Shown here: positions 1,321 through 47,896 of the stretch, piece after piece
How positions within the stretch are numbered: the stretch's first letter is position 1
Layout: each line of letters opens with the position of its first letter
Origin: an uncultured delta proteobacterium
Lineage (GTDB): Bacteria; Desulfobacterota; Binatia; UBA9968
Assembly: GCA_963737905.1 (NCBI GenBank)
Contig: CAVTUQ010000007.1
Span: forward strand, 192,001 to 256,000
Length of the DNA stretch: 64,000 bases
Direction: 5' to 3'
Position numbers and translations under genes: made by a program
Notes under the pieces: model-generated
The model's input: only the letters and a program-made list of their open reading frames with translations
The model's database searches: none
What the model was told of the DNA's origin: nothing

Positions 1321-1506
1321 CTTGAACACCGCCAGCTGGCTTGGCGGGCTCTTTAGTAAACGAACCTCCAAGGTCGTAGGCGTGTGACAGATGCTTTTGC
1401 CGAAACATCTCCGCCACCGTAATACGCTATGGGTTATGGCACCCTGGCTGGGAAAATGGCTACGATAGTTTGATTTTTTAGACCGCAACTCCTATCTTTT
1501 GCCAGC

Positions 1507-2316
1507 ATGAACGTTCAGGAAGCCAAGGCGAGTGCGACGCCTACGGTATCCGCCATTGTTGTTTGCTTCAACGAAGAGCGGAATATTGGCGCTTGTCTCG
1601 ATAGCGTGCGCTGGTGCGATGAGATCGTAGTGGTGGATTCCTTCAGCACGGATCGGACCGTGGAGATCTGCCGGCGATACACGAACCGTGTAGTGCAGCG
1701 GAAATGGTCCGGCTACCGTGATCAAAAGGCCTTTGCTCATTCCCTCGCGACGAAGGATTGGGTTCTACTTGTGGATTCCGACGAACGAGTTTCGCCGGAA
1801 CTCAAAAATGAGATTAACGACAACTTGGCGTCCTATGACAATACCTGTGCCGGGTTTTCAGTGCCGCGTCTAGTGTTTTATTTGGATCGTTGGTGGTGGC
1901 GAGGCGGTTGGTATCCGGATTATGACATTCGATTGTTCCGCCGTGACCGCGCGACTTGGGGCGGCACGGATCCTCACGAAAAGATTATAGTCGATGGCAA
2001 AGTTCGACGCCTCCGGAACCCCCTCCATCATTTTTCTTACCGAGACATCGCCGACCACGTGCAACGGATTAACCAGTTCACGTCCATTTCTTCGCGCGAG
2101 CTATTCAACGAGCGCAGGCGTTGGCGGTTGAGCGACGCCCTGGTCCGGCCAGCTTTCCGCTTTTTTCGCTCGTACATTTTGCGTCGCGGTTTTCTCGAAG
2201 GCTTTGCTGGTTTTCATGTGGCGTTGATGGCGTCCGTTTATGTGTTCCTTAAGTATGCTAAGCTTTGGGAGCTAGAATCAAAGGAGAAAGACGACGGTGA
2301 GCGCAAGCGGTCATAG
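1507..2316 (+). CDS. GT2 LPS-core beta-1,4-glucosyltransferase-like (WaaE/KdtX family)
   Basis: NEERNI..CLDSV.WCDEIVVVDSFSTDRT, DSDER, GGWYPD and PHE motifs. Confidence 0.85.
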   Translation: MNVQEAKASATPTVSAIVVCFNEERNIGACLDSVRWCDEIVVVDSFSTDRTVEICRRYTNRVVQRKWSGYRDQKAFAHSLATKDWVLLVDSDERVSPELKNEINDNLASYDNTCAGFSVPRLVFYLDRWWWRGGWYPDYDIRLFRRDRATWGGTDPHEKIIVDGKVRRLRNPLHHFSYRDIADHVQRINQFTSISSRELFNERRRWRLSDALVRPAFRFFRSYILRRGFLEGFAGFHVALMASVYVFLKYAKLWELESKEKDDGERKRS

Positions 2317-3439
2317 CCGCGGGCTCAGAATTTTGCACATCGATCCGGAGCGGAAGTGGGGTGGTGGAGAGGCTCAAGTTCTCGGTCTTTTATCCTACCT
2401 TGCACAGCGGGGTCATCGCAACGACCTGCTCACGCATCCCCACGGCCGGTTGTTTCAACAGAGTCAAGCGCTGAACGTCAGAACGATTCCTCTGGTTGTA
2501 CGAAATGACTTGGATTTACGGCCCGTGCCGGGTCTGAGGCGGCTTATACGCCGCGAGGATTACGATATTGTTCATTTGCACACGAAGCGAGCCCATGCGC
2601 TTTCGCTTTGGCTATCCCACAGATCCGCAAGACCAAAATACGTCGTGACCCGCCGTATGGATTATCCGGAGTCCAACACTTGGTATACGCGGTGTCTTTA
2701 CAATCGAAAAGCAGATGGCGTGGTGGCGATCTCACAGGAAATATTCGACCTGCTGGTCGAAGCTGGAGTAAAGTCCCACGGGATCCGTTTGATCCACAGC
2801 GGGGTTGACCCGCGACCATTTGCAGCTTCCGCCAGGGGATCTCACGAACACCCCGAACGCATCGTGGTTGGCATGGCTGCGGTTTTGGAAAAAAGGAAAG
2901 GCCATCGTTTGCTATTGGAAGCCGCTCGGCGGCTCAAAGAGCAGGGGTGTCAGATTAGCTACCGCCTCGCAGGTGAAGGGTCATTAAAAGAATCTCTCGA
3001 AGCACGGACCCTACAGCTAGGCTTGCAAGAGGATGTCCAGTTCCTGGGCTTCGTCGCCGACATGCCTGGCTTTCTAGCCAGTGTCGATGTTGTGGTCTTG
3101 CCGTCCCTCTTCGAAGGTCTCGGAGTGTCGATTCTGGAAGCTATGGCGGCGGGAAAAGCCGTCATCGCGAGCCGGGTGGGAGGGCTCCCGGAACTCGTGG
3201 TCGATGGGGCGACGGGAGTTTTGGTGGAACCGCGTGATGTCGCGGGACTCGTCAGAGCGATTGCGAAACTGGGGAGTGATCGAGCCCTGATTCGAAGCAT
3301 GGGTCAAAAGGGTAGAGAGCGGCTGAAAAACAACTTTACTATGGAACAAATGGGGCGGAAGAATGAAGCCTACTACTATGACCTTCTCCAAAGCACGGGA
3401 CGGTCGCCTATGACTGAGACGAGTTCAACTTGGGCATGA
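2297..3439 (+). CDS. Glycosyltransferase family 4
   Basis: WGGGEAQ N-terminal motif; PSLFEGLGVSILEAMAAG EX7E motif. Confidence 0.9.
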   Translation: MSASGHSRGLRILHIDPERKWGGGEAQVLGLLSYLAQRGHRNDLLTHPHGRLFQQSQALNVRTIPLVVRNDLDLRPVPGLRRLIRREDYDIVHLHTKRAHALSLWLSHRSARPKYVVTRRMDYPESNTWYTRCLYNRKADGVVAISQEIFDLLVEAGVKSHGIRLIHSGVDPRPFAASARGSHEHPERIVVGMAAVLEKRKGHRLLLEAARRLKEQGCQISYRLAGEGSLKESLEARTLQLGLQEDVQFLGFVADMPGFLASVDVVVLPSLFEGLGVSILEAMAAGKAVIASRVGGLPELVVDGATGVLVEPRDVAGLVRAIAKLGSDRALIRSMGQKGRERLKNNFTMEQMGRKNEAYYYDLLQSTGRSPMTETSSTWA

Positions 3440-4422
3440 AGCCTCTATTGGATATTCTCCACCGGTTTCGCCGCTCCCATCTGTTAGTGGTGGGCGATCT
3501 GATGCTGGATCGCTTTATTTGGGGAGATGTCGAAAGAATTTCACCGGAGGCGCCGGTTCCGGTTATGCGGGTTATGGCGGAGAGTCATCGCCTCGGTGGG
3601 GCGGCCAACGTTATAAACAACGTTCTTTCGCTGGGCGCGCAAGTGACCGCTTGCGGGGTCATCGGACGGGATATGGCGGGGAGACAGCTCGTGCATGACC
3701 TGCGTCGAGCGGGCGCTTCTACGGCTGGCATTGTCGGTGACCAGCAAGTTCAAACGACTCAAAAAAGTCGGATCATCGCCCGGCCGCGGCATCAACAGAT
3801 CGTGCGTTTGGACCGGGAGAATCAAAACCCGATTGCAGACGCAACCCTCAAGCGACTGCGCGAGTTCGTGCTCGTCAGGGCTAAGACATGCGATGGCATC
3901 GTCATCTCGGATTATGGGAAAGGCGTCGTGCATGGGAGCCTCTTAAGATCGATTGCACCTTTGGTCAGGCGAAAAAAGCTTATCTGTGTGGTCGATCCAA
4001 AAAAGGAAAATTATGCGGTTTATCGGTTTCCGACTTTGATCACGCCGAACAAAGATGAGGCGAGCGAGGCCTCGGGGATCTTAATTCGAGATGACGCCAG
4101 TCTCCGGGCTGCGGGGGAGAAGTTGGTGCGCATGTGGCAGGCGGAGGCCGTTTTGATCACGCGCGGGCCGGATGGGATGAGCCTTTTTCGGCGGAACCAC
4201 GCCGTTAAGCATTTCCCCACCCAACCGAGAGATATGTTCGACGTTACCGGGGCGGGCGATACGGTGGTCGCGATTTGTGGTTTGGCGCTGGCGTGCGGCG
4301 CGAGTTTTGAAGAAGCGGCCGTGGTCGCCAATCTCGCCGCCGGGCTGGTGGGCGCGGAAGTTGGAACCGTGGCGGTCTCGTTAGAAAAACTGAAGCAAAG
4401 CATCCAGAACAAGCAACTATGA
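3436..4422 (+). CDS. hldA: D-glycero-beta-D-manno-heptose-7-phosphate kinase (RfaE domain I)
   Basis: VVGDLMLDRFIWGDVERISPEAPVPV, LGGAANV, SDYGKG and DVTGAGDT PfkB motifs. Confidence 0.93.
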   Translation: MKPLLDILHRFRRSHLLVVGDLMLDRFIWGDVERISPEAPVPVMRVMAESHRLGGAANVINNVLSLGAQVTACGVIGRDMAGRQLVHDLRRAGASTAGIVGDQQVQTTQKSRIIARPRHQQIVRLDRENQNPIADATLKRLREFVLVRAKTCDGIVISDYGKGVVHGSLLRSIAPLVRRKKLICVVDPKKENYAVYRFPTLITPNKDEASEASGILIRDDASLRAAGEKLVRMWQAEAVLITRGPDGMSLFRRNHAVKHFPTQPRDMFDVTGAGDTVVAICGLALACGASFEEAAVVANLAAGLVGAEVGTVAVSLEKLKQSIQNKQL

Positions 4423-5286
4423 AGAGCATGACAGGTTACGGCGAAGCATCGAGTCAAATTCGAGGAACAAGCGTCACCGTTCAGGTCAGGAGCTTGAACC
4501 ATAGACATTTGGATCTGCAATTGAGGGCACCGAGGGAATACCTCTCCTTTGAAGAAGAGATTCGCAAAGTGATTCGCCAGAAGATTTCAAGGGGAAGGCT
4601 GGACGTCTTTATTAATCGTTCGCCGGCAAAAGGACAAGGTCGCAGGACTCGAGCTCGACGAGAAACTGTTAGGGGAATATTTGGCCACGGTCCGGCAGGC
4701 CAAACGAAAGTATCAATTGAGTGGAGACTTCAACGTGTCCCTGCTTTACAGTGTTCCAGACCTGTTGCGGGTTCGGGAAGTCGAGTTCAATGCGGCCGCG
4801 GAGCGGGAAGGGGTTTTCAAAATCCTCGATCAGGCGTTGGCGAGGCTCGAACGGGCGCGGGAACGGGAGGGACGACAACTTAAGTCGGATATGCAGTCAC
4901 AGATCCGGCACTTAAAACGGATCTCGATTCTGCTTGGATTACGGGCGAGCGAGATCGGCACCCGTCCGCAAAAGACCGCGGTTGTAGCGAAGGACCGAGA
5001 GGGCTCATTGCGAGCCGACAGAGATACGCCGGAAACAGCCAATTGGATTCTCAAGGGCGACATCAACGAGGAAGTGGTGCGCTTGAAAAGCCATGTGGAC
5101 GCCTTGTCGCGTGTGCTCGGGGAAAAAGAGCCGGTGGGAAAAAAGGTCGACTTCATGCTTCAGGAAGTGCAACGAGAGCTCAATACGATCAGTTCCAAGG
5201 TTCCCCACCTTCCTGTCGTTCAACTCGTGCTCGAAGGCAAAGAACGGGTCGAGAAGATCCGGGAGCAAACTCAAAACATTGAATGA
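4419..5286 (+). CDS. yicC: YicC/YloC family endoribonuclease, frameshift near 4640-4660
   Basis: MKSMTGYG..RSLNHRHLDL in ORF 4419; DINEEVVRLKSH, GKKVDFMLQE.QRELNTISSK and EKIREQTQNIE in ORF 4681-5286. Confidence 0.9.
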
Positions 5287-11396: not shown

Positions 11397-13131
11397 GTGA
11401 AAATTCACATTCTCTCGGATGAGATGGCGAGCCGCATCGCCGCCGGCGAGGTGGTCGAGCGTCCGGCGTCGGTGGTTAAGGAGCTCATAGAAAATTCCTT
11501 GGATGCCGGTGCGACGGAGATCTCCGTCTCCATTGAAAAGAGTGGCACGGCACTGATTTGCGTGACTGACAACGGTGAAGGCATGGGGTCTGAAGATCTC
11601 GCCCTAGCGGTAGAAAGACACGCGACGAGCAAACTGAGAAACGAAGAGGATCTCTTCCGCATCGCCACTTTGGGATTTAGGGGGGAAGCGTTGCCGAGTA
11701 TCGCCTCCGTTTCAAGGATGGAAATCGTGTCTCGCCTGCCCCTGTCGGAAACGGGATTCCGGATACGGATCGAAGGAGGAAAAAAGGCAGCGCCTTTGGT
11801 GACGGGTTCGCCACCGGGGACGAGTGTTGAGATCAGAGATATTTTTTTCAACACTCCGGCTCGACGCAAGTTTCTCAAATCGCCTGCTACTGAGCTGAGC
11901 CATATTTGTGACGTGTTTAACCGCATGGCGTTAGCCCATCCGGAGGTTCACTTTCGTCTCTCTCATGAGGGCAGGACGATTGCGGATCATGCAGTCGTGA
12001 ACCAGCTCAGCGATCGCTTTTATCAGGTTTTAGGGCGCGAAATCGCAAAGGATTTGATCCCTTTCTCTTGGGTCCGAGGCGATTTGCTTGCCAGCGGATA
12101 CCTAAGCTCTGTGCCGACTTCGTTCCCCAATTCGCGCTATCTTATTACATTTGTTAATCGCCGTTTTGTACGGGACAAGACGTTGACGCACGCGGTGTTG
12201 CAGGGCTATGAGACTTTGCTGATGAAGGGCCAGTATCCTGCGGTGGTCCTCTTTCTGGACATTCCGTCTGCCGAGGTAGACGTTAATGTCCATCCGGCAA
12301 AGTATGAAGTTAAGTTCCGCCGACAGTCGATCGTGCACGAAACGGTTGCCGAGGCCATTCAGCAAAAGCTAAAAGAAAAAGCCAAAGAACCGTCACGAAA
12401 CACATTCCCAACCATGTCCGGGCCGTTTGCCGGGGTGATGGAGGCGCAGCTACCGTATCGACCGTGTCGCAGAGCAAGAAAGGCACCCCGGGACGGATGC
12501 GTTTCCGATTTCCGGCGGCGGACACGCGGAATCGATCCCCAGTGGATTTTTCTCTTCTTTGAGTATCTTGGGCCAGATTCTTGGCTGCTATTTGGTTTGT
12601 TCCTCTCCGCAGGGATTGGCGCTTATCGATCAACATGCCGCCCACGAGCGGGTTTTCTTCGAAAAGTTCCGGCAACAATTGATTGGGGGGAATGTTCAGA
12701 AGCAGAGCCTACTCATCCCGCAAACGATTGAACTAACCGCCGGAGAGCTGATGCTCTTGGAGCAAAAACTTCCGGCCTTGGAGCGGTTGGGATTTCTTCT
12801 GGAGCCGTTCGGTCCTGCTTCCTACGCTATTACTGGAGTCCCGGCGCTTTTGCCGGAAGGTGATTACCGTCCCATCGTGCGACAAATGGTTGCGGAGTTG
12901 GCGGAGGTGGAGAATTCAGAGAAACTACGACAGCATCTGGAAGAGCGACTGGCGAGTATGGCATGCCATAGTGTTATACGGGCCAATCGTAAACTAGAAA
13001 TGCGCGAAATGCAGGCGCTGCTAAGCGAGCTGGATGGAATTGAATTTGCTACCCAATGTCCCCATGGTCGCCCGGTGCTGATCGAATTTGGCCGCGATGA
13101 GCTTGATCGGATGTTTAAGCGCGTGGTGTAG
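11397..13131 (+). CDS. mutL: DNA mismatch repair protein MutL, frameshift in the linker at about 12460
   Basis: IAAGEVVERPASVVKELIENSLDAG, GFRGEAL and DVNVHPAK; C-terminal DQHAAHER, MACH and CPHGRP lie in ORF 12559-13131. Confidence 0.95.
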
Positions 13132-13146: not shown

Positions 13147-13220
13147 GGTTCAAGGTTCAAAGTTGCGGGTTCGAGGTTCTGAGTATTCACCTTGAACATT
13201 GAACCTTGAACTTTTGAACC
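13147..13220. repeat. Gene-less inverted 7-mer microsatellite hairpin (GGTTCAA)n / (TTGAACC)n
   Basis: GTT units at 13148, 13155, 13162, 13169 and 13176; TTGAAC at 13192, 13199, 13206 and 13214. Confidence 0.85.
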
Positions 13221-21474: not shown

Positions 21475-22782
21475 ATGAAACGAATCGAGCCAGCCCGAGG
21501 CCCGCTGCATGGAGATATCACCGTGCCGGGAGACAAATCCATCGGACATCGCGCGGTGATTTTTGCCAGCATCGCTTCCGGCCGAAGCCGCATTTTCAAT
21601 CTCTCGGGGGGCGAGGACAATCTGCGAACCGTCCAAGCGTTCAAGGATATGGGGATTAAGATCTGGTCCGAAGGCAATTCTCTTTACCTGGAAGGAAGGG
21701 GCTGCAACGGTTTGTCGGCGCCCGGTAAAACGATTGACTGTGGTAACTCAGGAACCGCCATGCGCCTTCTCTCCGGAGTATTGGCCGGACGTCCTTTTAC
21801 CAGCCGCCTCGACGGCGACGCTTCGCTTCGACAGCGACCGATGCAGCGAGTGATCGACCCGCTGGGACGCATGGGAGCCCAGATCAGAAGCCGGGAAGGC
21901 AAAGGCCTCGCCCCTCTGGAAATCCAAGGCGCCAAGTTGAAAGCCATCGACTATAGAATGCCCGTCGCCAGTGCCCAGGTAAAATCGGCGATCCTGTTGG
22001 CGGGGCTGCAGGCCGAGGGGGTCACAAGTCTGGAAGAGCCGCAAAGTTCGCGTGATCACACCGAGCTGATGATCAAGGGCTTTGGAGGTGAAGCCAAAGT
22101 TGAGGGTCGCTCGGTCACGGTTATGGGCGGACAAGAACTTTCCGGAAGAGAAGTGCGCATCCCGGGTGATATTTCGTCTGCTGCTTTTTTCCTTGTGGCG
22201 GCAGCGGTGATTCCCGGTTCGGAAATCATCGTCCGGGATGCCGGCGTGAATCCCACCCGTGATGGCGTGATTGAAGTCCTGCGCCGTATGGGAGCCAAAG
22301 TCCAATTTCTCAACCCGCGAATCGAAACGGGCGAGCCCGTCGCTGACATTAAAGTATATGGCGGTCAATTGACGGGCGTTGAGATCGGCCCGGAGATGGC
22401 GGCGCGAACCATTGACGAGTATCCCATTTTAGCGGTAGCGGGAGCACTGGCGGCGGGAGTGACCACGATCTCGGGCGTCAAGGAACTCCGCTACAAGGAG
22501 TCGGATCGTATCGCCACCATGACAGAGGGCCTTCGTCATCTGGGCGTCGAGGTCGAAGAACGAGAAGACGGCATGACCATTCGAGGCGGGAAGCCCCTTG
22601 AGGCAGCAACGGTAAAGACCTATGGTGATCATAGGGTCGCTATGTCATTGGCGATCGCCGGTTTGTCCACCAACGGCGGCCTGCAAATGGACGATGCAGG
22701 CTGCGTCGATACTTCGTTTCCCGGGTTTTTTGAGTTATTGAAACGGATGTGTTCGCATTCGGTAAGCTTAGAGAGTATATAG
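21475..22782 (+). CDS. aroA: EPSP synthase
   Basis: PGDKSIGHR, DCGNSGT, ASAQVKSA, KESDRI and DHRVAMS. Confidence 0.96.
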   Translation: MKRIEPARGPLHGDITVPGDKSIGHRAVIFASIASGRSRIFNLSGGEDNLRTVQAFKDMGIKIWSEGNSLYLEGRGCNGLSAPGKTIDCGNSGTAMRLLSGVLAGRPFTSRLDGDASLRQRPMQRVIDPLGRMGAQIRSREGKGLAPLEIQGAKLKAIDYRMPVASAQVKSAILLAGLQAEGVTSLEEPQSSRDHTELMIKGFGGEAKVEGRSVTVMGGQELSGREVRIPGDISSAAFFLVAAAVIPGSEIIVRDAGVNPTRDGVIEVLRRMGAKVQFLNPRIETGEPVADIKVYGGQLTGVEIGPEMAARTIDEYPILAVAGALAAGVTTISGVKELRYKESDRIATMTEGLRHLGVEVEEREDGMTIRGGKPLEAATVKTYGDHRVAMSLAIAGLSTNGGLQMDDAGCVDTSFPGFFELLKRMCSHSVSLESI

Positions 22783-28576: not shown

Positions 28577-30169
28577 ATGGTACACATAAGATACAGCCGT
28601 TGGGACAGGAACGCGCGGGACTCTCTAGATTCCGAGAGCGTGTTCGATCAGCTCAACGACTACATGAACGACAGTGGCGACCTCCAGCAGGCGATGCGGC
28701 GGCTCATGCAGAAGGGCATCAAACAGGGGGAAAAACAGACCAAAGGAATCGATGATTTGTTGTCTCAAGTGGCGCGGGAAATGCGCAAACTCTACGACGA
28801 GTATCGCCTTCAGTCCGCTATGGACGAAGTGCAGGAGCAACTGGAGTCCATCGTCGATCAGGAGCGCCAGACCCTAGAGGAGTTAGACCAAGCCGGCCAA
28901 AACACCCAGGAACAAAAACAATTTTTGAACAACCTGCCCGGCAAAGTCAGCGAGGCGGTTGAAAAGCTGACTTCTTACCGCTTCGAAAATACCAACGCCG
29001 AGAAAGAGTTCCAACAGCTGCTCATGCAGTTGGAGCAGATCCGCAAGCTGGAAAACTGGCTGCGTCGCGAAGGGAGTCTCTTTCGCGGCCAAACTCCCTT
29101 GCAATTTCAGGAGTCCATGGACCTCATGGAGCGCATGGAGGAGCTGCGGCGTCTGGAAGGCCAGTTATCGAGCATGCAACTGCGCGACGTCGACAAGGAG
29201 CTTTTGGAAAAACTCCTGGGCGCCGATCCGAAGCAGGACTTCGAAGGCGTTATGCGGATGCAATCCTTGCTCGAAGAGGGCGGCTACGTCTTGGAGCAGG
29301 GAGACCGTTTCGAGCTGACTCCGCGCGGCATCCGACGCGTGGGGCAGTTGGCCCTGAGAGATATTTACCAGCAGCTGCGCCGGGACGGCATGGGCAGGCA
29401 TTCGGCTCGCTACCGGGGCAGCCAGGAAATACAGATCGAGAATAGCCGGCCCTATGTCCAAGGGGACGCTCTCCATATCAACATGATTCAAACCCTCAAA
29501 AACGCGCTGCTCAATGGCGGAGGTGTGCCGGTTAGAATTCGTCCCGGAGATTTTGCCGTCTATGATTCCGAGCACACCACTCGCGCCGCCACGGTTCTGC
29601 TTTTGGACATGAGTTGGTCCATGAGCTGGGAAGGGCGTTTCGCCGCGGCGAAAAAAGTGGCATTAGCGATGGAGAGTCTCGTTCGGTCGCTTCACCCGCG
29701 GGACTATTTCGGTATCGTTGGTTTCTTCACCCGTGCCGTGGAGCTGAAGGCAAAGGATCTGCCACAGGCGACCTGGAATATGGGCGATCCGTTTACCAAT
29801 CTCCAGGACGGATTGCACCTGGCTGCCGAGATGTTGGAGCGACGACCGAGCCCGAATCAACAGATGATCGTCATAACGGACGGTCAACCCACCGCTTATT
29901 GCCGCCAGGGGCGGCTTTACTGCGAGTGGCCCCTGAGCTTTGGCGGCATCAGCCAACGCGCCGCCGAGGAAACCTTGAAAGAGGCCGAGCGCATTACCCG
30001 TAAGGGGATCACGATCAACACCTTCATGCTCGACGATAGCCCGGTGCTCCGCGGCTTTGTCGATGATCTCACCCGCATCAACAGAGGCCGCGCCTTCTAC
30101 ACACGACCGGATCGTCTGGGTCAATACTTGCTCATCGACTACCTCTCTCACCAAAAAAAGAAAGTCTAA
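28577..30169 (+). CDS. VWA domain protein, probable partner of the AAA+ ATPase
   Basis: LLLDMSWSM MIDAS motif, TNLQDGL and ITDGQPT; coiled-coil N-terminus. Confidence 0.88.
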   Translation: MVHIRYSRWDRNARDSLDSESVFDQLNDYMNDSGDLQQAMRRLMQKGIKQGEKQTKGIDDLLSQVAREMRKLYDEYRLQSAMDEVQEQLESIVDQERQTLEELDQAGQNTQEQKQFLNNLPGKVSEAVEKLTSYRFENTNAEKEFQQLLMQLEQIRKLENWLRREGSLFRGQTPLQFQESMDLMERMEELRRLEGQLSSMQLRDVDKELLEKLLGADPKQDFEGVMRMQSLLEEGGYVLEQGDRFELTPRGIRRVGQLALRDIYQQLRRDGMGRHSARYRGSQEIQIENSRPYVQGDALHINMIQTLKNALLNGGGVPVRIRPGDFAVYDSEHTTRAATVLLLDMSWSMSWEGRFAAAKKVALAMESLVRSLHPRDYFGIVGFFTRAVELKAKDLPQATWNMGDPFTNLQDGLHLAAEMLERRPSPNQQMIVITDGQPTAYCRQGRLYCEWPLSFGGISQRAAEETLKEAERITRKGITINTFMLDDSPVLRGFVDDLTRINRGRAFYTRPDRLGQYLLIDYLSHQKKKV

Positions 30170-30187
30170 CGCGCCTAGGGCGCGAGA

Positions 30188-30265
30188 CAGTTCAAAGTTC
30201 AAGGTTCAAAGTTCAAAGTACTCGGAGCCTCTGTCCTTGAACCTGGAACCTTGAACATTGAACTG
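30188..30265. repeat. Gene-less inverted 7-mer microsatellite hairpin, 4x GTTCAAR / 4x TTGAACN
   Basis: GTTCAA at 30190, 30197, 30204 and 30211; TTGAAC/TGGAAC at 30237, 30244, 30251 and 30258; loop of about 18-20 nt. Confidence 0.9.
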
Positions 30266-30284
30266 GGCGTCGCCCCGGCGCCTA

Positions 30285-30313
30285 TTGACACCTGAAACTA
30301 TTTTCAGTATATA
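30285..30313 (+). promoter_or_regulatory. lexA promoter with a putative SOS box CTGAAA-CTAT-TTTCAG in the spacer
   Basis: TTGACA (30285), 17 bp, TATATA (30308); the spacer holds a 16-bp palindrome of CTG-N10-CAG form (30292-30307). Confidence 0.7.
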
Positions 30314-30319
30314 GAGCTT

Positions 30320-30928
30320 ATGCTTCCTTCGCTGACTTTTAGGCAAAAAGAAATTTACGATTTCTTGCTCAAGACGATTCGCGAAAAGGGCTTTGCCCCT
30401 TCGATTCCCGAGATCGGCAGACAGTTTAAGATCGCCTCGACCAATGGCGTTTCCGATCACCTCAAGGCCCTGGAAAAAAAAGGTTACATTCGCAGAGTCG
30501 GTAAACGAGCCATCGAGGTTTTATCCGCTGTCGGCAAGCCGGTTCTGACAGCGGTTCGCGACATTCCGATTGTGGGCAGGGTCCCCGCGGGCAAGCCGTT
30601 TCTCAGCGAAGAAAACGTCGAAGGGCTTTTGACGGTCCCCAGCGATATGGGATCGGGAAGACTTTTCGCCCTGCAGGTCAAAGGAGACAGCATGACCGGC
30701 GCCGGCATCCTAAACGGCGACCGGGTGATCGTGAAGCAACAGGGGACCGCGGAGAACGGCGAGATCGTCTGTGCCCTGATCGAGGGGGAAGCGACCTTGA
30801 AGCGTTTCTATAAAAAAGACGGCGCCATAACCCTTAAAGCAGAGAACGAAAAATATGCTCCGATCACCATCTCAGCCGGAGAATTTCGCGTCCTGGGCAA
30901 GGTGGTGGGGTTGATGAGGAAATTCTAA
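30320..30928 (+). CDS. lexA: SOS repressor LexA
   Basis: LTFRQKEI..PSIPEI..HLKALEKKGYI wHTH; VPAG cleavage site; VKGDSM (catalytic Ser) and ATLKR (catalytic Lys). Confidence 0.96.
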   Translation: MLPSLTFRQKEIYDFLLKTIREKGFAPSIPEIGRQFKIASTNGVSDHLKALEKKGYIRRVGKRAIEVLSAVGKPVLTAVRDIPIVGRVPAGKPFLSEENVEGLLTVPSDMGSGRLFALQVKGDSMTGAGILNGDRVIVKQQGTAENGEIVCALIEGEATLKRFYKKDGAITLKAENEKYAPITISAGEFRVLGKVVGLMRKF

Positions 30929-30933
30929 AAATA

Positions 30934-30972
30934 GTTCAAAACGTTCAAGCCGTTCAAAACGTTCAAGTCGTT
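30934..30972. repeat. Left arm: 4x 9-mer GTTCAANNC
   Basis: GTTCAAAAC GTTCAAGCC GTTCAAAAC GTTCAAGTC GTT. Confidence 0.92.
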
Positions 30973-30985
30973 AGGAGAAAAACCG

Positions 30986-31423
30986 ATGCAAGTAAGAAAC
31001 TTTGAAGATCTGGAAATTTGGAAGGACGCTAGAGCACTAACACGGGAAATCTATCAGCTGACAAGCGATTCTAAATTCTCAAAAGATTTCGCCCTGCGGG
31101 ATCAAGTCCGGCGTGCAGCGGTCTCGATCATGTCAAATATCGCGGAGGGGTTTGAACGAGGAGGCAACCAAGAATTCATTCAGTTTCTCTATGTTGCCAA
31201 AGCGTCTTGCGGTGAAGTTCGCTCTCAACTTTACGTAGCCTTGGATCAATCTTATGTAGCACCTAAAGATTGCGATGATGCCAGCAAGTCTTTTCGGCGT
31301 TTATCAATCATGATCAGCAACTTAATCGATTACTTAAAGCGCAGCGGTCTGAAAGGATCAAAATATACCGCGACAAATCGTCCAAAAAGTCCGACATCTT
31401 TGATTCCCACCGAAACGGCTTGA
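30986..31423 (+). CDS. Four-helix-bundle protein (23S rRNA IVP / TIGR02436 / Avd-like family)
   Basis: [32 protein letters not shown] and [19 protein letters not shown] signature. Confidence 0.93.
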   Translation: MQVRNFEDLEIWKDARALTREIYQLTSDSKFSKDFALRDQVRRAAVSIMSNIAEGFERGGNQEFIQFLYVAKASCGEVRSQLYVALDQSYVAPKDCDDASKSFRRLSIMISNLIDYLKRSGLKGSKYTATNRPKSPTSLIPTETA

Positions 31424-31452
31424 ACGGCTTGAACGATTTGAACGTCTTGAAC
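31414..31452. repeat. Right arm: 4x 9-mer TTGAACNNN, reverse complement of the left arm
   Basis: AACGGC TTGAACGGC TTGAACGAT TTGAACGTC TTGAAC; the gene's stop TGA lies in the first unit. Confidence 0.92.
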
Positions 31453-31462
31453 ATTCAAGCAG

Positions 31463-32059
31463 ATGTTTTCTTCTACCCCAGAACTCAGACACGATATCGT
31501 CCAGCCGTCGCCCTGGAATCTCGCGGCGATCGCCGGGCGGTTCATCGAGATTTCGGCCTCGGCCAGCGCCGCTTCATTGACTCTCGCCTTTGGTCTCGTT
31601 CGGGAGGCGCAAATACGGGGCGAGCCTGCGGGCTGGGTGACATCGATGGAGAGTTTTTTTTATCCACCCGATGCGGCTTACGGCGGAATTGATCTTGCGG
31701 CACTGGCCGTTGTTCGTGTGCTTCATGCTGTAACCATCCCTCGCGCGGGAGAAAAGCTTTTACGCTCGGGCGGCTTCGGTCTGATCGTGCTCGATCTCGG
31801 AATTGCCGATATTCCTATGCCGCTCCAAAGCCGTCTGACCGGACTGGCCCAACGTTACCATACCGGCTTGGTTTGCCTTACAGAGAAGGAGAGCAAGGCA
31901 TTTTCACTGGGATCATTGGTTTCATTGCGGGCTCATGCCGAACGGCAACGAAGTTCTGACAATCGCTTTACTTGTAGGCTCCGTGTTCTCAAAGACAAGC
32001 GGCGCGGACCGGCCTGGAGTCATGAGGAGTTTTGCTGTGGTCCGGCTGGCTTGTGTTGA
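31463..32059 (+). CDS. imuA: ImuA/RecA-like mutasome accessory protein
   Basis: Degenerate RecA fold (GRFIEIS, FYPPDAA.GGIDL, LLRSGGFGLIVLDL); lies between lexA and imuB. Confidence 0.8.
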   Translation: MFSSTPELRHDIVQPSPWNLAAIAGRFIEISASASAASLTLAFGLVREAQIRGEPAGWVTSMESFFYPPDAAYGGIDLAALAVVRVLHAVTIPRAGEKLLRSGGFGLIVLDLGIADIPMPLQSRLTGLAQRYHTGLVCLTEKESKAFSLGSLVSLRAHAERQRSSDNRFTCRLRVLKDKRRGPAWSHEEFCCGPAGLC

Positions 32060-33568
32060 TTTACCCGCCTTTCCGCTTCAGCTTCTGCTCCGGCGCCATC
32101 CCGAGTGGGCGTCTCAACCGGCGGCCGTGGTGGCCGAAGACAAGCCGCAAGGATTGATTCTCTGGGTCAACGAAAAGGCCAGGCAACATGGTGTGCTGCC
32201 CGGGCTGCGCTACGCTGCGGCCTTGTCTCTCGCGACGGAACTTCGTGCCGGTGCAGTTGCGTCGACTGAAATCCAAAAGGGCCATCAAAGAGCTAACCTA
32301 TCGGTTCATGTATTTCAGCCCAGAAGTGGAGCCTTCCTCTGAAGAGCCTGGAGTCTTCTGGCTCAATGGTATGGGTTTGAAGCTTCTTTATCCCTCTTCC
32401 GAGAAATGGGCTCAAGCGCTTCATGCCGATATCGCAGCGCAGAAATTTCATGTGAGTGTAGTCGCAGGCTTCACGCGCTTCGGTACTTATGCGGTCGCCA
32501 AAATAAAAAAGGGGATAACGGTTTTCAACGATCCTGCCGAAGAGCGGCAGGCTGCGCAACGAAGTTCCATTGCATCGTTTGGATCTCGATCCGGATTTTC
32601 GCGACACGCTTTTTAAGCTCGGCATCAGAACTGTCGGCGCCTTGCTTTCACTGCCGCCGGTGGGGTTGCGCGAGCGTTTCGGACCGAAGGCTTATCGTCT
32701 CCACCGCATGGCTGCCGGCGATCTCTGGACGCCGCTGGATCCATGCAAGCCCGAAGAGCCGGTCAAGCAACACCGCATACTCGACGATCCGGAAGACGAC
32801 ACCACCCGGCTGCTCTTCCTCATCAAGCAGTTGCTCCACCCGATGCTGGCAACTCTTGCCGCGCGCGCTCAGGCGCTGGCGGCGTTGTGGCTATCTTTTC
32901 TGATCGATAGAAACGGCTGGCTGAAGGAGCAGATCCGTCCAGCGGTGCCCACCTTGGATTCAAACCAGATACTCGATCTGGTTTGGCTGCGCCTGGAGGC
33001 CATGCAGTTTTCTGCCGGCATCACTGAGATCGCGCTTGAGGCAGAAGCATGCGCGGCCACAACCGAACAACTGCGCCTTTTCAGCGAGGGGCCGGCGCGC
33101 GATCTCGATGCCGCCAATCGAGCTCTGGCTCGCTTGCGTGCGGAATTTGGCGACGGTGCTGTTGTGCAGGCGAAGTTAAGAGATGGACACCTTCCCGAAG
33201 CCCGCTTCGCCTGGGAACCTCTCAATCGCGTCAAGCTTCCCCGAAACGACTTGACCGATTTGAACGAATTGAACGACTTGAACGATTTGAACGGGCCAGT
33301 TCCGAGACCGTTGGTGCGCCGGATCATGGCGAAGCCCATGCCTTTGCCCGGCGGGCCGCGCCATACCCATGAGGACGGCTGGCTTATCCTCGGACATAAA
33401 TATGGCAGCGTCGATAAGCTCTCCGGGCCCTACGTTTTCTCCGGCGGCTGGTGGAACAGAGAAATCCAGCGCGACTACTACTTCGCCGAAACCCGCCGCG
33501 GCGCCATCGCCTGGGTTTATTACGATCGGGTGCGGCGAAGATGGTTTTTGCAGGGATTAATTGAATAA
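32037..33568 (+). CDS. imuB: ImuB, inactive Y-family polymerase; two frameshifts at about 32280 and 32560
   Basis: RLACVDLPAFPLQ, FSPEVEP, LGIRTVGALL.LP..GLRERFG and C-terminal GPYVFSGGWW..RDYYFAE..WFLQG; RBS GAGGAG at 32024. Confidence 0.85.
33245..33294. repeat. In-frame 9-mer TTGAACGAN array inside imuB, encoding NDLTDLNELNDLNDLNG
   Basis: TTGA(A/C)C at 33251, 33260, 33269, 33278 and 33287. Confidence 0.9.
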
Positions 33569-33571
33569 CGC

Positions 33572-33604
33572 GGTTCAAAGGTTCAACGTTCAAAAAGTTC
33601 AAGC
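33572..33604. repeat. Left arm of the second element, 4x GTTCAA
   Basis: GTTCAA at 33573, 33581, 33588 and 33597. Confidence 0.85.
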
Positions 33605-33640
33605 CCAGATGAAGATTAAACAGATCGTAGGAGGGCAGCA

Positions 33641-34040
33641 ATGGCTGGTGAAAAACTTTGAAGATCTGGAAATGTATGGAAGCAAGCCCGGCAACTAACT
33701 CAAGAAATTTATCGTTTAACGAAAACGAAAAATTTCAAAGGATTTCGCTCTGCGGGATCAAATCCGACGGGCAACAATCTCAATCATGTCAAATATCGCA
33801 GAAGGATTTGAACGAGGAGGAAACCAAGAATTCATTCAGTTTCTTTATGTCGCGAAGGCATCGTGCGGGGAAGTAAGATCGCAACTTTACGTCACCCTTG
33901 ATCAGGAATATGCGACAGCGAATGAAAGCGAAAAGTGACTCCAACTTTTCAGGCGTTTATCTATCATGATCAGCAATCTGATTGCTTATTTGCGGGAGAG
34001 TGAGATGAAAGGCGAAAAATTCATCGTTCAAAGCCGGCCT
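33641..34040 (+). pseudogene. Second four-helix-bundle gene, disrupted
   Basis: Close nucleotide paralog of 30986-31423 (..[51 protein letters not shown]..); several 5' frameshifts and an in-frame TGA near 33937. Confidence 0.85.
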
Positions 34041-34044
34041 TACG

Positions 34045-34067
34045 TTGAACTGTTGAACCATTTGAAC
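34045..34067. repeat. Right arm of the second element, 3x TTGAAC
   Basis: TTGAAC at 34045, 34053 and 34062. Confidence 0.75.
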
Positions 34068-34085
34068 AACTATCTAAGGAGTAAC

Positions 34086-34367
34086 ATGATAGTCCATCCT
34101 GGCAGAATCCTACTGGAGGAATATTTAGCTCCGAGAGGAATCAGCGTCTGGCATCTGGCCAAAGACATCGGTGTTTCTGCGCGGCGCGTCTACGAGATCG
34201 TCCAGGCACAACGACCTATCACCACCGACATCGCCCACCGCCTCGCGCATTACTTCGGCATGTCGGAGCGGTACTGGCTCGATTTGCAGACGCGATATGA
34301 CGGGAAGGGAGAAGCAAAGTTGTCGCAAGAGATTAGCAGAAGACAATCGTTAAGGTACGCCGGATAA
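34086..34367 (+). CDS. higA: HigA/VapI family antitoxin (XRE HTH), orphan
   Basis: [46 protein letters not shown]; RBS AAGGAG. Confidence 0.85.
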
Positions 34368-34383
34368 ACAAGGGAGGATCGTT

Positions 34384-35478
34384 ATGATAGACAGTGTTAA
34401 CACACCGAGGCCGACGACCCGTACGCTCGCGGTGATCGACGGCGGATTGAATGTCAACGCTCGCGTTCACCCGCTTCCATCCAGCGGGAAGCCGAAGCTC
34501 CTGGAGCAAGTCCGCCAGGCCATCCGAACCCGGCACTACAGCAACAAAACTGAGAAAGCCTATGTGCATTGGATCAAGCGATACATATTTTTCCACGATA
34601 AACGCCATCCACTGGAAATGGCGGAGTCCGAGATCGCCCAGTTTCTCTCCGGTCTGGCGACGGAGAGACGGGTCAGCGCATCCACGCAGAACCAGGCCTT
34701 TAACGCAATTTTATTTCTCTATAATGAAGTGCTGAGCAAAAAGATCGGACTGATTGACGGCGTTGTTCGCGCGAAGAGGCCGCTGAGGTTGCCGTTCGTG
34801 CTCACGAAAGAGGAAGTTAAGAAAGTGATCGATCGGATGAACGGTGTGCCACGTCTGATGGCGATTCTTCTCTACGGTGGTGGTTTGCGACTGATGGAAT
34901 GCTGTCGTCTCCGGGTCAAAGATATCGACTTTTCTCGCAACGAGATCGTCGTTCGGGCGGGCAAAGGTGACAAAGACCGTCACACAATGCTGCCGACAGC
35001 GATCAAGGAGTCTCTTTTCAGACATATTGAGGCGATTCGATGCCAGCATCAAGAAGATATCAAAAAGAGACTCGGTCGCGTCGCGTTGCCGAATGCTTTG
35101 GAGCGCAAATATCCTAACGCGGGTCGAGAATGGGCGTGGCAGTGGGTTTTCCCTGCTCCCCAACATTACACCGATCGGGTTACTGGCGAGAAGCGCCGGC
35201 ATCATCTTCACGAATTTGTGGTGCAGAGGGCGGTGAAAGAGGCTGTACAGAAAGCTGGGATATCCAAACCGGCGAGCCCGCACACGTTTCGCCATTCCTT
35301 TGCCACCCATCTACTTGAAGACGGATATGATATCCGGACGGTGCAGGAGCTATTGGGGCACAGGGATGTCAGTACTACGATGGTCTGTACCCACGTATTG
35401 AATCGAGGTGGACGAGGAGTACGTAGTCCTGCGGACAGTTTGGGTTCGGTACTCGGCGCCGAACTCAGAGGTTTCTGA
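34384..35478 (+). CDS. intI: Integron integrase IntI, catalytic Tyr replaced by Cys
   Basis: [37 protein letters not shown], integron-specific insert ([23 protein letters not shown]), [13 protein letters not shown] and TTMVCTH. Confidence 0.95.
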
Positions 35479-36373: not shown

Positions 36374-36616
36374 ATGGCGAGATCGAAAGTTGCAATTTCT
36401 TTAGATGAATCCACCCTCAACCGTCTCGATCAACTAGTTAAAAAACAAGTCTTTCCTAACCGCAGCCAGGCGATCGAGGAAGCTGTTGCGGAGAAACTCG
36501 CACGGTTGGAGAAAAGTCGTTTAGCCGAGGAGTGTGCGAAACTGGATCCAAAATTCGAGAAGGCGCTTGCGGAAGAGGGGCTTTCTGGGGATTTGGCCGA
36601 ATGGCCCGAATACTGA
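36374..36616 (+). CDS. Cassette 2: CopG/RHH antitoxin
   Basis: [13 protein letters not shown]...[12 protein letters not shown]; overlaps the toxin start. Confidence 0.85.
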
Positions 36617-36939
36617 GAGGGGAGATCCGGTGGGCCGACCTAAATCCTGTACGGGGGCGAGAACAAGCAGGACAGCGTCCCATTTTGATTTTGAGCCAGG
36701 ACGTTTTCAATGACCGCTCCGGAACGGTCATTGCCGTTGCGCTCACGAGTCAACCCCAACGTGCCGGCTTTCCTTTAACGCTTGAACTTCATGCAAGAGG
36801 GCTCCCGAAAAGATCGTGGGTGAAAATCAGCCAAATTCGAACGCTCGCCGTTGAACGCATAGACAAAGTGATTGGTCGCGCGTCTCCGGAGGAGCTGGCT
36901 CAGGTGGTCGAAGGATTGAACGAGATCATCGGAACCTAA
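36601..36939 (+). CDS. mazF: Cassette 2: MazF/PemK toxin
   Basis: [30 protein letters not shown] and [11 protein letters not shown]. Confidence 0.9.
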
Positions 36940-45581: not shown

Positions 45582-47806
45582 TCAAACATCATGCTTAGGA
45601 TTAGGCGCATCACGCCGCGTGTTCAGGTGGGCGACGACTAGCCGGATCTGTTCATAGGTCACCTTGCCACCAAGGCGCTCGAAGACAGGCTGCAGGTATT
45701 CGGTGCCCAACTCTTTCACGGCGTCGGCAATTGATCGATATGTCTTTTGATTGATCCAGGGCTCCAATCCCTCCGGGCGGCGATTTTGGATAAACTCTGC
45801 GAGGTAGCCCCAGGTCGTGCCAAGGGCGCGGCCGGTTCGCTTTGTGACTTGTTCCACGCTGGCACCGTTGACGAACAATTCAAAAGCTGTCTCTTTCGAC
45901 ATCGTTCGGCTTGCGGACGCGTTCGCGATGGGGACGACTGCTGAGGGCGGCGTCCAGCGGCAAGTTCCGTGGGCACGACAATAGGTCGCGATGAGCTCAA
46001 GGAAAGTTGTCCGAGGTCGGCGAGCTTGCGCTCGCCGACACCACGAATACCGAGGAGTGCGGACGCTGATCCTGGTCGGGCTCTTGCCATGTCGCGCAAA
46101 GTGTCGCGTCGCTGAATAGGACGTAAGCGGGCACGTTCCGCTCGTCGGCGATTTGTCGCCGTAAAGTCCGAAGACTATCGAACAAACCGACGATCGACTC
46201 TCTCCCAAGACTGTTCGTCGAAGCGGGGCTTGCCGACCTCTGCCTTTGGCTGCAGCAACCGCACGGTGCGTTTGCCGCGCAATACCGTCCACGATGCGTC
46301 GTTAAGGCGAAGAACCGGGCGTTCCTCCGCGCGTCCGCTCAAGTAGGCCGTCATCAAGAGTTGGTAGAGCATATTGGTCAGCGTCTTGCGCTTCGTACCC
46401 TTCATCAAGCCGTAGGTACTAAGCTGCTCGTGGCGCCAGCGGCGCACGCGTTCGGTATCGGCGCCCAACAGCACATCCACGATATGCTCGGCGCCAAAGC
46501 GCTCGCCCACGCGCGCCACGCACGACAGGATCTTTTGCGCTGTGACCGTCGCGTCCGCAAGGCCTTCCACCTCGTTGAGACAGAGGTCGCAGGCGTCGCA
46601 GCTCGTCTTCGAGTATTCCTGCCCGAAGTATTCGGACAGCTTGCGGTGGCGGCAATGAACCCCGGTAGCAAAATCGGCGCATGTGTTCGAGCAGCTCGCG
46701 CGCCGCGGCGATCACCTCGCTAGGGGCGCCGGCTTCGGCGGCGCTTTTCTCGATCAGCGATTCCCAACGAATGACATCAGCGGCTGAGTAAAGCAGTACG
46801 CACTCCGCCTCTAGCCCATCACGCCCGGCGCGGCCGGTTTCCTGCTGGTAGTGCTCGATCGATTTAGGCATTGCGGCATGGATGACGCAGCGAACGTCGC
46901 TCCGGTCGATACCCATGCCGAACGCTACCGTCGCCGCGACCACGTCGATTTCCTCCGCCGCAAAGGCGTCCTGTGTTCGGCGCCGTTCCTCCGCCTCCAT
47001 GCCAGCGTGGTAGAAAGCAGCGCGCAGCCTATTGGCTTGCAACCACTCCGCCATGGCTTCGGTGTCCTTGCGGCTGATGCAATAGACGATCGCTGCCTCG
47101 CCCGGGCGACGCCGCAGTACTTGCAGCACCTGCATTTGCGCATCGACGCGGGGAACGATGCGATACATTAGGTTGGGACGGTCGAACGTGCCGACCAACA
47201 CCGCCGGGTTCTGCAGACGCAACTGCTCGGCGATGTCCGCGCGCACGCGCGCGGTGGCCGTCGCCGTATAGGCGTGTACGCTGGCCTGCGGAAAACGGGT
47301 CTTGAGTTCGGCGAGCTGGCGGTACTCCGGCCGAAAGTCGTGACCCCAGTGGCTGATGCAATGCGCTTCATCGATGGCGAATGCCTGGACCTGCAAACGC
47401 TCGATGACCTGCAGAAAGCGCGGCGTCAGCAGGCGCTCGGGCGCGACGAATACCAGGCGATAGCGGCCGGCCGCGATCTGCGCTTCGGTCTCCCGGATGG
47501 CATCGAGAGGCATGCCGCTGTATAGGGCTCGCCGCCGGATAGCCGGATTCACGCAGCCCGTCGACCTGATCCTTCATCAATGAGATGAGCGGCGAGACCA
47601 CGATATCGGTCCGCTGCGCCAGCTCGGCGGGAACCTGGTAACAGAGCGACTTTGCCGCCTCCTGTCGGCATGACGACGAGCGAGTCGCGCCGCTCGAGTC
47701 CCGCCCGAATCGCTTGCTCTTGCAGCGGGCGCAGCTCGGAGAATCCCCAGTAACGGCGCACCGTGGCGAGGATGTCAGCGGTCGAGTAGTGTCTCGGTTG
47801 GCTCAT
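45582..47806 (-). CDS. recQ: DNA helicase RecQ, multiple frameshifts
   Basis: [59 protein letters not shown] and HRDC domains, spread over about 6 ORF pieces. Confidence 0.9.
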
Positions 47807-47896
47807 GCTCTTTTCGCTACGATCCAAATCAATGCATGAGACGCTCGAATGAGTCAATGAGCAGATCGTGGGAGACGCCGAAAAGCGGGTTTGAAA

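Follow-up and report, generated by a model that had tools for sequence, protein, structure and literature searches.

The 64,000-nucleotide stretch analysed here (contig CAVTUQ010000007.1 of assembly GCA_963737905.1, from an uncultured delta proteobacterium, positions 192,001 to 256,000; hereafter the window, to whose positions all coordinates refer) carries an SOS operon in which a small gene of the PF05635/TIGR02436 four-helix-bundle family stands between two inverted arrays of short tandem repeats, the whole cassette (unit 1, 30934-31452, + strand) occupying the spacer between lexA and imuA. On the 5' side of unit 1 lies lexA (30320-30928, +; 202 aa, stop TAA at 30926-30928), which matches the Peptidase_S24 (1.3e-31), LexA_DNA_bind (5.4e-20) and TIGR00498 (5.2e-61) profiles. 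The lexA promoter region contains an SOS-box-like palindrome, CTGAAACTATTTTCAG (30292-30307, +), which is the sole palindromic one of the 11 matches to CTGN10CAG in the window (12 expected) and a putative LexA box. On the 3' side follow an imuA-like open reading frame (ORF; 31463-32059, +; 198 aa) and imuB (32037-33568, +). The window copy of the imuA-like ORF gave no family match in the profile scans, and its orthologue in a related metagenome-assembled genome (MAG; locus L001, described below) matches the NF033429 ImuA model at 3e-07, under the curated cutoff. The imuB gene occupies three reading frames in the window, with two apparent frameshifts, and is an intact 538-aa ORF in L001. By a profile scan of its ORFs, the window is ordinary bacterial chromosome.

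Read from the sequence, unit 1 has the build that the initial annotation had given it, namely about 520 bp between the lexA stop and imuA that comprise two arms, a ribosome-binding site and an ORF of 145 aa. The left arm (30934-30972, +) consists of four copies of GTTCAANNC followed by GTT, with a period of 9 (GTTCAAAAC GTTCAAGCC GTTCAAAAC GTTCAAGTC GTT). It is followed by the Shine-Dalgarno (SD)-like sequence AGGAG (30973-30977, +), 8 nt 5' of the ATG, by the four-helix-bundle ORF (30986-31423, +) and by a right arm (31414-31452, +) of four copies of TTGAACNNN (AACGGC TTGAACGGC TTGAACGAT TTGAACGTC TTGAAC), and the stop codon of the ORF (TGA, 31421-31423) falls, as had been noticed, within the first TTGAAC of that arm. 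The arms, 39 nt each, are 85% complementary, with 33 Watson-Crick, 2 G-U, 3 A-C and 1 other apposition. Their earlier description as reverse complements that could form a stem of about 39 bp therefore holds in so far as they provide the closing stem of the predicted fold of 30920-31470, in the minimum free energy (MFE) and centroid structures alike, but only 33 of the 39 positions are Watson-Crick pairs. The arms are not a product of chance, since the window has 11 copies of GTTCAANNNGTTCAA where 0.02 would be expected (0 of 100 shuffles reach 11), and GTTCAA and TTGAAC occur 35 times each, in nine clusters, against the 12.8 expected from base composition. The left-arm 9-mer GTTCAANNC also looks like a tRNA T-loop together with its closing pair (tRNA positions 53-61), although this may be a coincidence.

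No promoter or terminator pattern was found on the + strand between lexA and an integron integrase gene situated further 3', so that unit 1 should be co-transcribed with lexA and imuAB. The region 29900-34500 contains no rRNA match, and the search for known RNA families returned only sub-threshold matches to miRNA precursors, located in a gene-less hairpin that is described below. No reverse transcriptase family was found among the 68 window ORFs scanned.

The assignment of the encoded protein to the 23S_rRNA_IVP family is borne out by profile matches well above cutoff, to PF05635 (3.5e-34, 117.7 bits, cutoff 33.8) and to TIGR02436 (1.1e-32, 112.4 bits, cutoff 24). An AlphaFold2 (AF2) model of the protein (pLDDT 90.9) has four long helices (residues 10-26, 35-58, 61-87 and 93-120) and a disordered tail from about residue 121. 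The Avd-like fold that had been proposed for it is likewise recovered: among solved structures Foldseek places XCC0516 first (2GSC; E 5.6e-6, target-normalised TM-score 0.90), BT_0352 second (2RLD; E 1.5e-4) and Avd (4DWL, 8UB*) next, and XCC0516 is also the only protein matched by phmmer among the sequences of the PDB (3.8e-14). The PDB entries 2GSC and 2RLD each contain five chains, and by homology the unit 1 protein is presumed to be pentameric. The family motif GxxRxxxSxxxNxxE, as given in PMC3936711, is represented by R43, S47, N51 and E54, with the leading G replaced by Q40, and an alignment of 72 family members shows no variation at N51, E54 or G55 and almost none at S47.

The family is large, with 17,992 representatives at 50% identity matching at E<=1e-3. 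The closest 120 protein clusters listed are 77-96% identical to the unit 1 protein and about three quarters of them lie on contigs shorter than 5 kb, a bias that would be expected if a multi-copy unit breaks assemblies; the relatives of the window proteins are named as Candidatus Binatia or Deltaproteobacteria MAGs. None of the defence-system models matches the unit 1 ORF or imuA, and a protein-level search of a phage collection gave no match. Footprints of the arms, in the form of tripeptide repeats, are clear in only a few over-extended ORF calls among the homologues (P0005, P0040, P0065, P0067 and P0169), and the Ser-rich tripeptide-repeat matches in homologues are ambiguous as such footprints.

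The pairing of gene and arms extends to other members of the family. A tblastn search of plasmids returned 32 matching records, 17 of which were examined, and these, together with the two units of the window and two further genome loci, give 21 genes whose flanks were compared. All 21 are bracketed by complementary tandem-repeat arrays, built from 13 different repeat units and distributed over five phyla. In 11 of the 17 plasmid loci the arrays abut the gene, and in four (L132, L134, L138 and L140) one arm lies 80-150 nt from it. The plasmid units have a period of 7 (GGTTTAA, GGGAAAA, GTAGGGA, GTCAGRA, CAGGGAA, GTGTAGG, TTAGCTG, AAAAGGG, AAGGCAG, GAGGACG and ACAGGTG) or of 8 (AGGAGATA and GAGGGCAG), and the number of copies per arm given by Tandem Repeats Finder (TRF) is mostly about 3-5, with a range of 2.6-12.6. 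Over the first 14 loci, arrays are 23 times as dense in the 150 nt adjoining either end of the gene as they are elsewhere (25 in 5,348 bp versus 13 in 64,812 bp, p = 2e-19). Furthermore, 12 of 14 neighbouring genes used as controls show no pairing between their flanks (z -1.7 to +2.2), the other two (z = -3.7 and -7.9) sharing an arm with a unit, and in a 50-kb stretch of plasmid pNsp_a of Nostoc sp. ATCC 53789 (L141) only 3 of 60 coding sequences (CDS) are bracketed, these being the family gene, an arm-sharing neighbour and a 66-aa ORF. The gene family is thus tied to inverted tandem arms, in the sense that the gene predicts the arrays, and a comparison of the units shows an anatomy that is kept while the sequence of the arms changes.

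Individual plasmid loci show further detail. In L141, 11 of the 16 tandem arrays (12 counting AATTCTG) use GTCAGRA, which is the arm unit of the sole family gene there; these arrays include nested gene-less hairpins beside the family gene as well as those bracketing the 66-aa ORF (22424-22624). In the remaining two of the 17 loci (L135, 913-3409; L136, 1174-3409) an ISL3-family transposase gene stands between the left arm, of AAGGCAG repeats, and the four-helix-bundle gene, apparently as an insertion into a unit.

The host contexts of the 21 units are unrelated to one another and include cas10/cmr2-cmr3, cas6-cas4, nrdB-nrdA (antisense), parA-parB, cysD-cysN, a 23S rRNA gene and positions after integrase or transposase genes. 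The cysD-cysN example, from a Cyclobacteriaceae MAG (L007), is a 47%-identical gene placed exactly between those two genes and within heptamer arrays, GGTTCAA-like on the left and CCTGAAA/CCTTGAA on the right. Phylogenetic analysis of 20 proteins places the copies from the window, L001, Riemerella and Cyclobacteriaceae in one clade (99/96 support), all four with GTTYAA-type arms; the three GTCAGRA copies form another and the three AAGGCAG copies a third, while deeper neighbours have different units. This match of clade to arm fits co-inheritance of arms and gene, across phyla too, and would fit specific recognition equally. The arms are moreover polarised: 15 of the 21 units combine a purine-rich 5' arm (>=0.69) with a pyrimidine-rich 3' arm (<=0.33), and no unit is clearly reversed; GTTCAA-type arms are neutral in this respect. 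The purine-rich 5' arm often reads as tandem SD-like motifs directly 5' of the ATG.

The window itself contains a second such cassette, unit 2 (33572-34067, +), between imuB and a higA-like gene. It has a left arm of GGTTCAAA-type repeats with a period of 8/9 (33572-33602, +), a decayed four-helix-bundle ORF (33641-34040, +) and a right arm of three TTGAAC (34042-34067, +). The ORF gives profile matches in three frames (the best at 33720-33935, E 2.4e-42) and is broken by an in-frame TGA (33936-33938) as well as by frame breaks and indels; because the assembly may carry indel errors, only the in-frame stop is firm evidence of decay. In the window imuB, mutL (11397-13130) and recQ (46422-47857) are split over two or three frames, and are either pseudogenes or products of assembly indel errors. 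The alignment of unit 1 with unit 2 (575 columns, 81% mean column identity) extends from arm to arm and the similarity ends outside, showing a cassette that was duplicated as a whole, arms and gene together.

The initial annotation had further stated that the arms recur in the window with a paralog, without any gene, and inside a CDS. The first is unit 2, although its arms are shorter than those of unit 1 and its ORF is decayed. The second corresponds to two hairpins, one between the stop of a von Willebrand factor A (VWA) gene and the lexA promoter (30190-30263; four AGTTCAA, a 16-nt loop and four CCTTGAA-type repeats, period 7; -35.5 kcal/mol, z -5.6) and one between mutL and miaA (13148-13219; GGTTCAA/TTGAACN heptamers; z -4.3), and 0 of 200 shuffles folded as well in either case. 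The third requires a different reading: a TTGAACNNN array that encodes DLTDLNELNDLNDLN is indeed present within imuB (33245-33293, +), but it is an established repeat of the ImuB linker. Among the 120 relatives listed, 112 have both anchor motifs and 106 of the 112 have at least two tandem LNx units there, the LNx segment measuring 13-41 residues with one relative essentially devoid of it; judged from these relatives, the array is an old, length-variable, in-frame (LNx) microsatellite of the lineage and not a fresh insertion. In the predicted fold of 33235-34080 (MFE and centroid) the partner of unit 2's left arm is the imuB array rather than the unit's own weak right arm, and the pairing encloses the last ~280 nt of imuB. 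L001 has both of these arrays as well.

L001, the orthologous locus in a related MAG, aligns with the window at the DNA level over 1035 columns (81% mean column identity). It retains the imuB array and unit 2, each arm of the latter being made of four GTTCAA/TTGAAC repeats with a period of 9, and on this comparison unit 2 is old and vertically inherited in the two lineages. Directly 5' of imuA, L001 has inverted GTTCCA...TGGAAC arrays with a loop of ~70 nt and no gene (fold z -4.1); the locus ends near these arms, and lexA lies outside the sequence seen. The question of whether the gene is a fixed part of the operon accordingly receives two answers, as it is not fixed 5' of imuA, but at the position of unit 2 it is syntenic and vertically inherited. 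The proposed search for empty sites and target duplications likewise gave the gene-less arms of L001 on the one hand and, on the other, no target duplication at either window unit. At the edge of the L001 sequence (4827-4760, minus strand) the upstream gene, of which 14 nt proper lie in the locus, seems at its visible end to continue into the GTTCCA arm (PFQLFQQFQMFQ...), and this arm may thus again be within a coding region. Further 3' in the window, the integron integrase gene (34384-35478, +; TIGR02249, 455.7 bits) comes directly after lexA, imuA, imuB, unit 2 and the higA-like gene and shares their strand, and 3' of it are small ORFs that include a MazE/MazF-like pair (36374-36939). No integrase ORF is found at the corresponding position in L001.

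Approached from the side of the repeats, the association is not reciprocal. A scan of a genome collection by arm pattern (periods 7-9) yielded at least 123 array loci, 80 of those listed having 2-kb flanks, and is a sample rather than a census. Among the 123 loci listed, the four-helix-bundle gene is found in 2, by single-query tblastn and by a profile built from 133 diverse representatives and the window protein alike; 20, from many phyla, are hairpins that lack a gene and whose loops do not exceed 150 nt, 4 have a partner array 151-700 nt away, and 99, of which 49 are short-flanked, lack a partner within range. In themselves, GTTCAA arrays are not tied to the four-helix-bundle gene, and the arms do not predict it. 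The suggestion of a genome-wide association of arrays with genes of this family is therefore supported in one direction, by the 21 bracketed genes and the 23-fold density, but not in the other, whereas the coexistence of gene-carrying and gene-less arm pairs of one motif is found as proposed, in the window, L001 and L141. One Desulfobacterales contig (L051-L053) carries several different tandem 7-8-mer arrays and a long inverted repeat that ends in AGTTCAA arrays and then GTTAGGAGT, ~500 nt apart, with no family gene inside.

On balance these observations lead us to favour, with moderate confidence, the interpretation that unit 1 is an intervening sequence (IVS)-type cassette in the spacer of an SOS operon, one of a widespread class of compact cassettes composed of a PF05635 gene and inverted arrays, the arms of which probably form an RNA stem that RNase III can cleave. 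Its architecture puts it in one class with the ORF-bearing IVSs of 23S rRNA, although its host is not an rRNA gene. Unit 1 would be transcribed from the lexA promoter within the operon, and its arms would pair in the operon transcript as an imperfect stem of ~35 bp. RNase III would then cut this stem as it does in rRNA IVSs, releasing the RNA of the ORF and parting the lexA message from the imuAB message, and such cutting would allow the cassette to sit in an operon or in an rRNA helix at little cost. Cleavage of the unit 1 stem, argued by analogy, is about evenly balanced between likely and unlikely. The element would spread by a DNA-level route, and decay, as a selfish passenger, and the encoded protein may bind the stem, by analogy with Avd. 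The earlier proposal of an mRNA-level IVS or small selfish element thus agrees with the architecture of the 23S IVSs, although no transposase accompanies the unit.

Several observations weigh against this interpretation. Six of the 39 positions of the unit 1 stem are not Watson-Crick pairs, and the whole 551-nt segment 30920-31470, with a fold z of only -1.13, is not unusually stable. In the census of arm mismatches, G-U (22) does not significantly exceed A-C (14; p = 0.24), and the sense duplex of the flanks, calculated for duplexes extended past the arms, is more stable than the antisense one in 11 of 16 units (p = 0.12); with no G-U excess and no clear sense-strand advantage, selection at the RNA level is not shown. 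Three of the 21 units (L126, L132 and L134) are antisense to their neighbours, so that those copies would not be translated from a host operon transcript. With respect to mobility, no transposase was found in or beside units 1 and 2, inspection revealed no direct repeat flanking the arms of either, and unit 2 is syntenic in the window and L001 at 81% mean column identity, which implies that movement there is rare or ancient. The loop of the gene-less arms in L001 scores 18 against the interior of the gene, where shuffles average 16.5 and 90 of 300 score at least as high; with no gene remnant in it, either gain or loss of the gene may have produced the difference. Finally, most of the 17 plasmid loci come from cyanobacteria and some are closely related to one another, and about 13 independent arm types are represented.

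The arms may alternatively be, above all, binding sites for the encoded protein, an oligomer of which would recognise the repeat stem or the single-stranded repeats and would regulate its own translation or form a stable ribonucleoprotein (RNP), cleavage by RNase III being incidental. This explanation is compatible with the IVS-type cassette and differs from it only in which step matters; as an account of what the arms are chiefly for, we regard it as possible but less likely. Avd (4DWL, target-normalised TM-score 0.88) is reported to bind a stem-loop beside its own gene, and the arm motif follows the protein clade across phyla, although a motif shared within a clade is equally expected from co-inheritance. 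The usual ~3-5 repeats per arm may be set beside the five chains of 2GSC and 2RLD, but no single geometry accommodates periods of 7, 8 and 9, and the copy numbers range from 2.6 to 12.6. Pairing or binding at the purine-rich, SD-like 5' arm of 15 of the 21 units could gate translation, and on the Nostoc plasmid 11 of 16 arrays share the arm unit of the resident gene. A bolder form of the same idea, which we consider rather unlikely, would make PF05635 oligomers dedicated trans-acting partners of tandem heptanucleotide arrays, each protomer reading one repeat of a hairpin arm in the way that Avd protomers grip flipped-out bases; the gene-carrying unit would be autonomous, the far more numerous hairpins that share its motif and replicon but lack a gene would be its targets or offspring, and the whole would constitute a genome-wide system acting on RNA or single-stranded DNA structure that would also explain the rRNA IVSs.

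Also doubtful, and to a similar extent, is an element that operates at the level of DNA, in which the arms would be terminal inverted repeats or extruded hairpins for a recombinase supplied in trans, the RNA stem a by-product, and the gene-less pairs miniatures or preferred targets. The homology of units 1 and 2 from arm to arm only, the occurrence of units in both orientations relative to their neighbours and in unrelated contexts (cas operons, nrdB-nrdA, parA-parB, cysD-cysN, 23S rRNA), the spread of a clade with one arm type over two phyla, and the gene-less arms 5' of imuA in L001 are all in keeping with such an element. However, tandem-repeat arms whose period and copy number differ between the two sides are unlike the ends recognised by recombinases, and neither a transposase nor a target duplication accompanies the two window units. 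The integron integrase gene 300 nt 3' of unit 2 also speaks for such an element, but it is missing from the same position in L001, and arms on both sides of the gene are unlike a single attC.

Improbable, in our judgement, is the proposition that there is no element at all and that the hairpins are ordinary intergenic repeats of the host, insulators or stabilisers similar to repetitive extragenic palindromic (REP) or short tandemly repeated repetitive (STRR) sequences, between two of which a small resident gene lies by accident. Gene-less hairpins of the same hexamer do occur in the window and account for 20 of the 123 array loci listed, from many phyla, 99 of those arrays have no partner in reach, and tandem heptanucleotide arrays are known to abound in some genomes. 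Against this stand the bracketing of 21 of 21 family genes compared with 2 of 59 other CDS in the 50-kb control, the 23-fold enrichment, the duplication of arms and gene together, and the presence of the same build inside a 23S rRNA gene. Lastly, the position within an SOS operon, and the use of direct GTTC repeats as LexA boxes by certain lineages, might suggest that the repeats between lexA and imuA are sites for LexA or another SOS regulatory protein, but this highly improbable reading is at odds with the distribution of the arms, which are found also between mutL and miaA, 3' of imuB and, in Bacteroidota, around a gene between cysD and cysN, while the lexA promoter already has a conventional CTG-N10-CAG palindrome.

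The wider interest of the IVS-type cassette lies in the family to which its gene belongs, PF05635/TIGR02436 being a very large family of unknown function that is known mainly for the ORF of 23S IVSs and as a relative of the Avd fold. The bracketing of the gene by inverted tandem arrays provides an apparently undescribed and potentially general rule for this family. If the rule is general, most family members would be IVS-type cassettes residing both in rRNA and in the spacers of operons; their presence in cas, nrd, par, cys and SOS operons would reflect harmless insertion sites and not a common function; and the long-unexplained tandem heptanucleotide arrays would gain a candidate protein partner. 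In the window, the transcript of lexA-imuAB would contain a possible processing site. The predictions are simple and testable, namely cuts in the arms and binding of the protein to its own arms, and cyanobacteria are tractable for both. The literature searched, which did not extend to subscription papers and supplements, yielded no description of inverted tandem arrays around PF05635 genes outside rRNA, and as far as that search reached the initial description of the element as undescribed is upheld.

Compared with mobile elements of known types, the units are distinct. Transposons and miniature inverted-repeat transposable elements (MITEs) differ from units 1 and 2, which have neither a transposase nor a target-site duplication. 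An integron gene cassette has a single recombination site, attC, at its 3' end, whereas the arms flank the gene on both sides, and an attC reading of the arms was rejected on this layout. The gene-less hairpins of the window belong by form with tandem heptanucleotide arrays, of which 3-8 copies of 7-9-nt units in spacers, sometimes as inverted pairs, have been described, and the arms, the hairpins and all related units answer to an STRR-like description, as short 7-9-nt tandem arrays in spacers (TRF). The cyanobacterial heptanucleotide arrays go by the name of STRR sequences. Arrays of this kind are abundant in some genomes, among them those of Beggiatoaceae (TAACTGA) and cyanobacteria, and occur as paired sites in Geobacter, and the available portions of the reports draw no link between them and PF05635 genes.

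A PF05635 gene wedged in cas operons, for example between cmr3 and cmr2, has been read as a functional link to CRISPR-Cas (PMC3936711). Such genes recur among the present loci, at cas10/cmr2-cmr3 and at cas6-cas4, but in contrast to that reading cas operons are here one kind of host among many unrelated ones, and the copies within them carry arms. Avd, the accessory protein of diversity-generating retroelements (DGRs), resembles the unit 1 protein in fold (4DWL and the 8UB* RNP entries, target-normalised TM-score 0.77-0.88), with a structure-based sequence identity of only ~15%, and the unit 1 gene, unlike that of Avd, has no adjoining reverse transcriptase and no pair of template and variable repeats. 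The Avd pentamer is reported to bind an 11-bp stem-loop RNA beside its own gene, all five protomers making contact and flipped-out bases lying between protomers, and the RNP contains a duplex between the sequences that flank the template.

The closest known system is the 23S rRNA IVS of Leptospira, Coxiella, Xanthomonas, Azospirillum and others. It differs from unit 1 in location, which is an rRNA helix as opposed to the lexA-imuA mRNA spacer, and unit 1, lying outside rRNA, the defining location, is not filed as a 23S IVS; unit 1 also has a good ribosome-binding site of its own and a repeat period of 9 rather than 7. Excision by RNase III, predicted for unit 1, is documented for the rRNA elements. 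For Coxiella, published work reports a terminal stem of 28 bp within which RNase III cuts, tandem GACAGAT heptamers on the 5' side in a variable number of 2-3 copies, and an ORF under reductive evolution; ORFs for intervening-sequence proteins (IVPs) are similarly reported from rRNA insertions of the candidate phyla radiation (CPR). In Azospirillum lipoferum (L139), an ORF (2456-2857) lies inside the large-subunit (LSU) rRNA gene (1292-4490), that is, in a classical IVS, and its arms consist of 3.9 copies of GAGGACG and 4.1 copies of GTCTTCT. The two kinds of cassette thus share a PF05635 ORF of ~120-145 aa that fills the loop above a stem of ~30-nt terminal inverted repeats, short tandem repeats in the arms (computed here for Azospirillum and reported for Coxiella), a tendency of the ORF to decay (seen in unit 2 and reported for Coxiella) and an overall size of ~430-520 nt.

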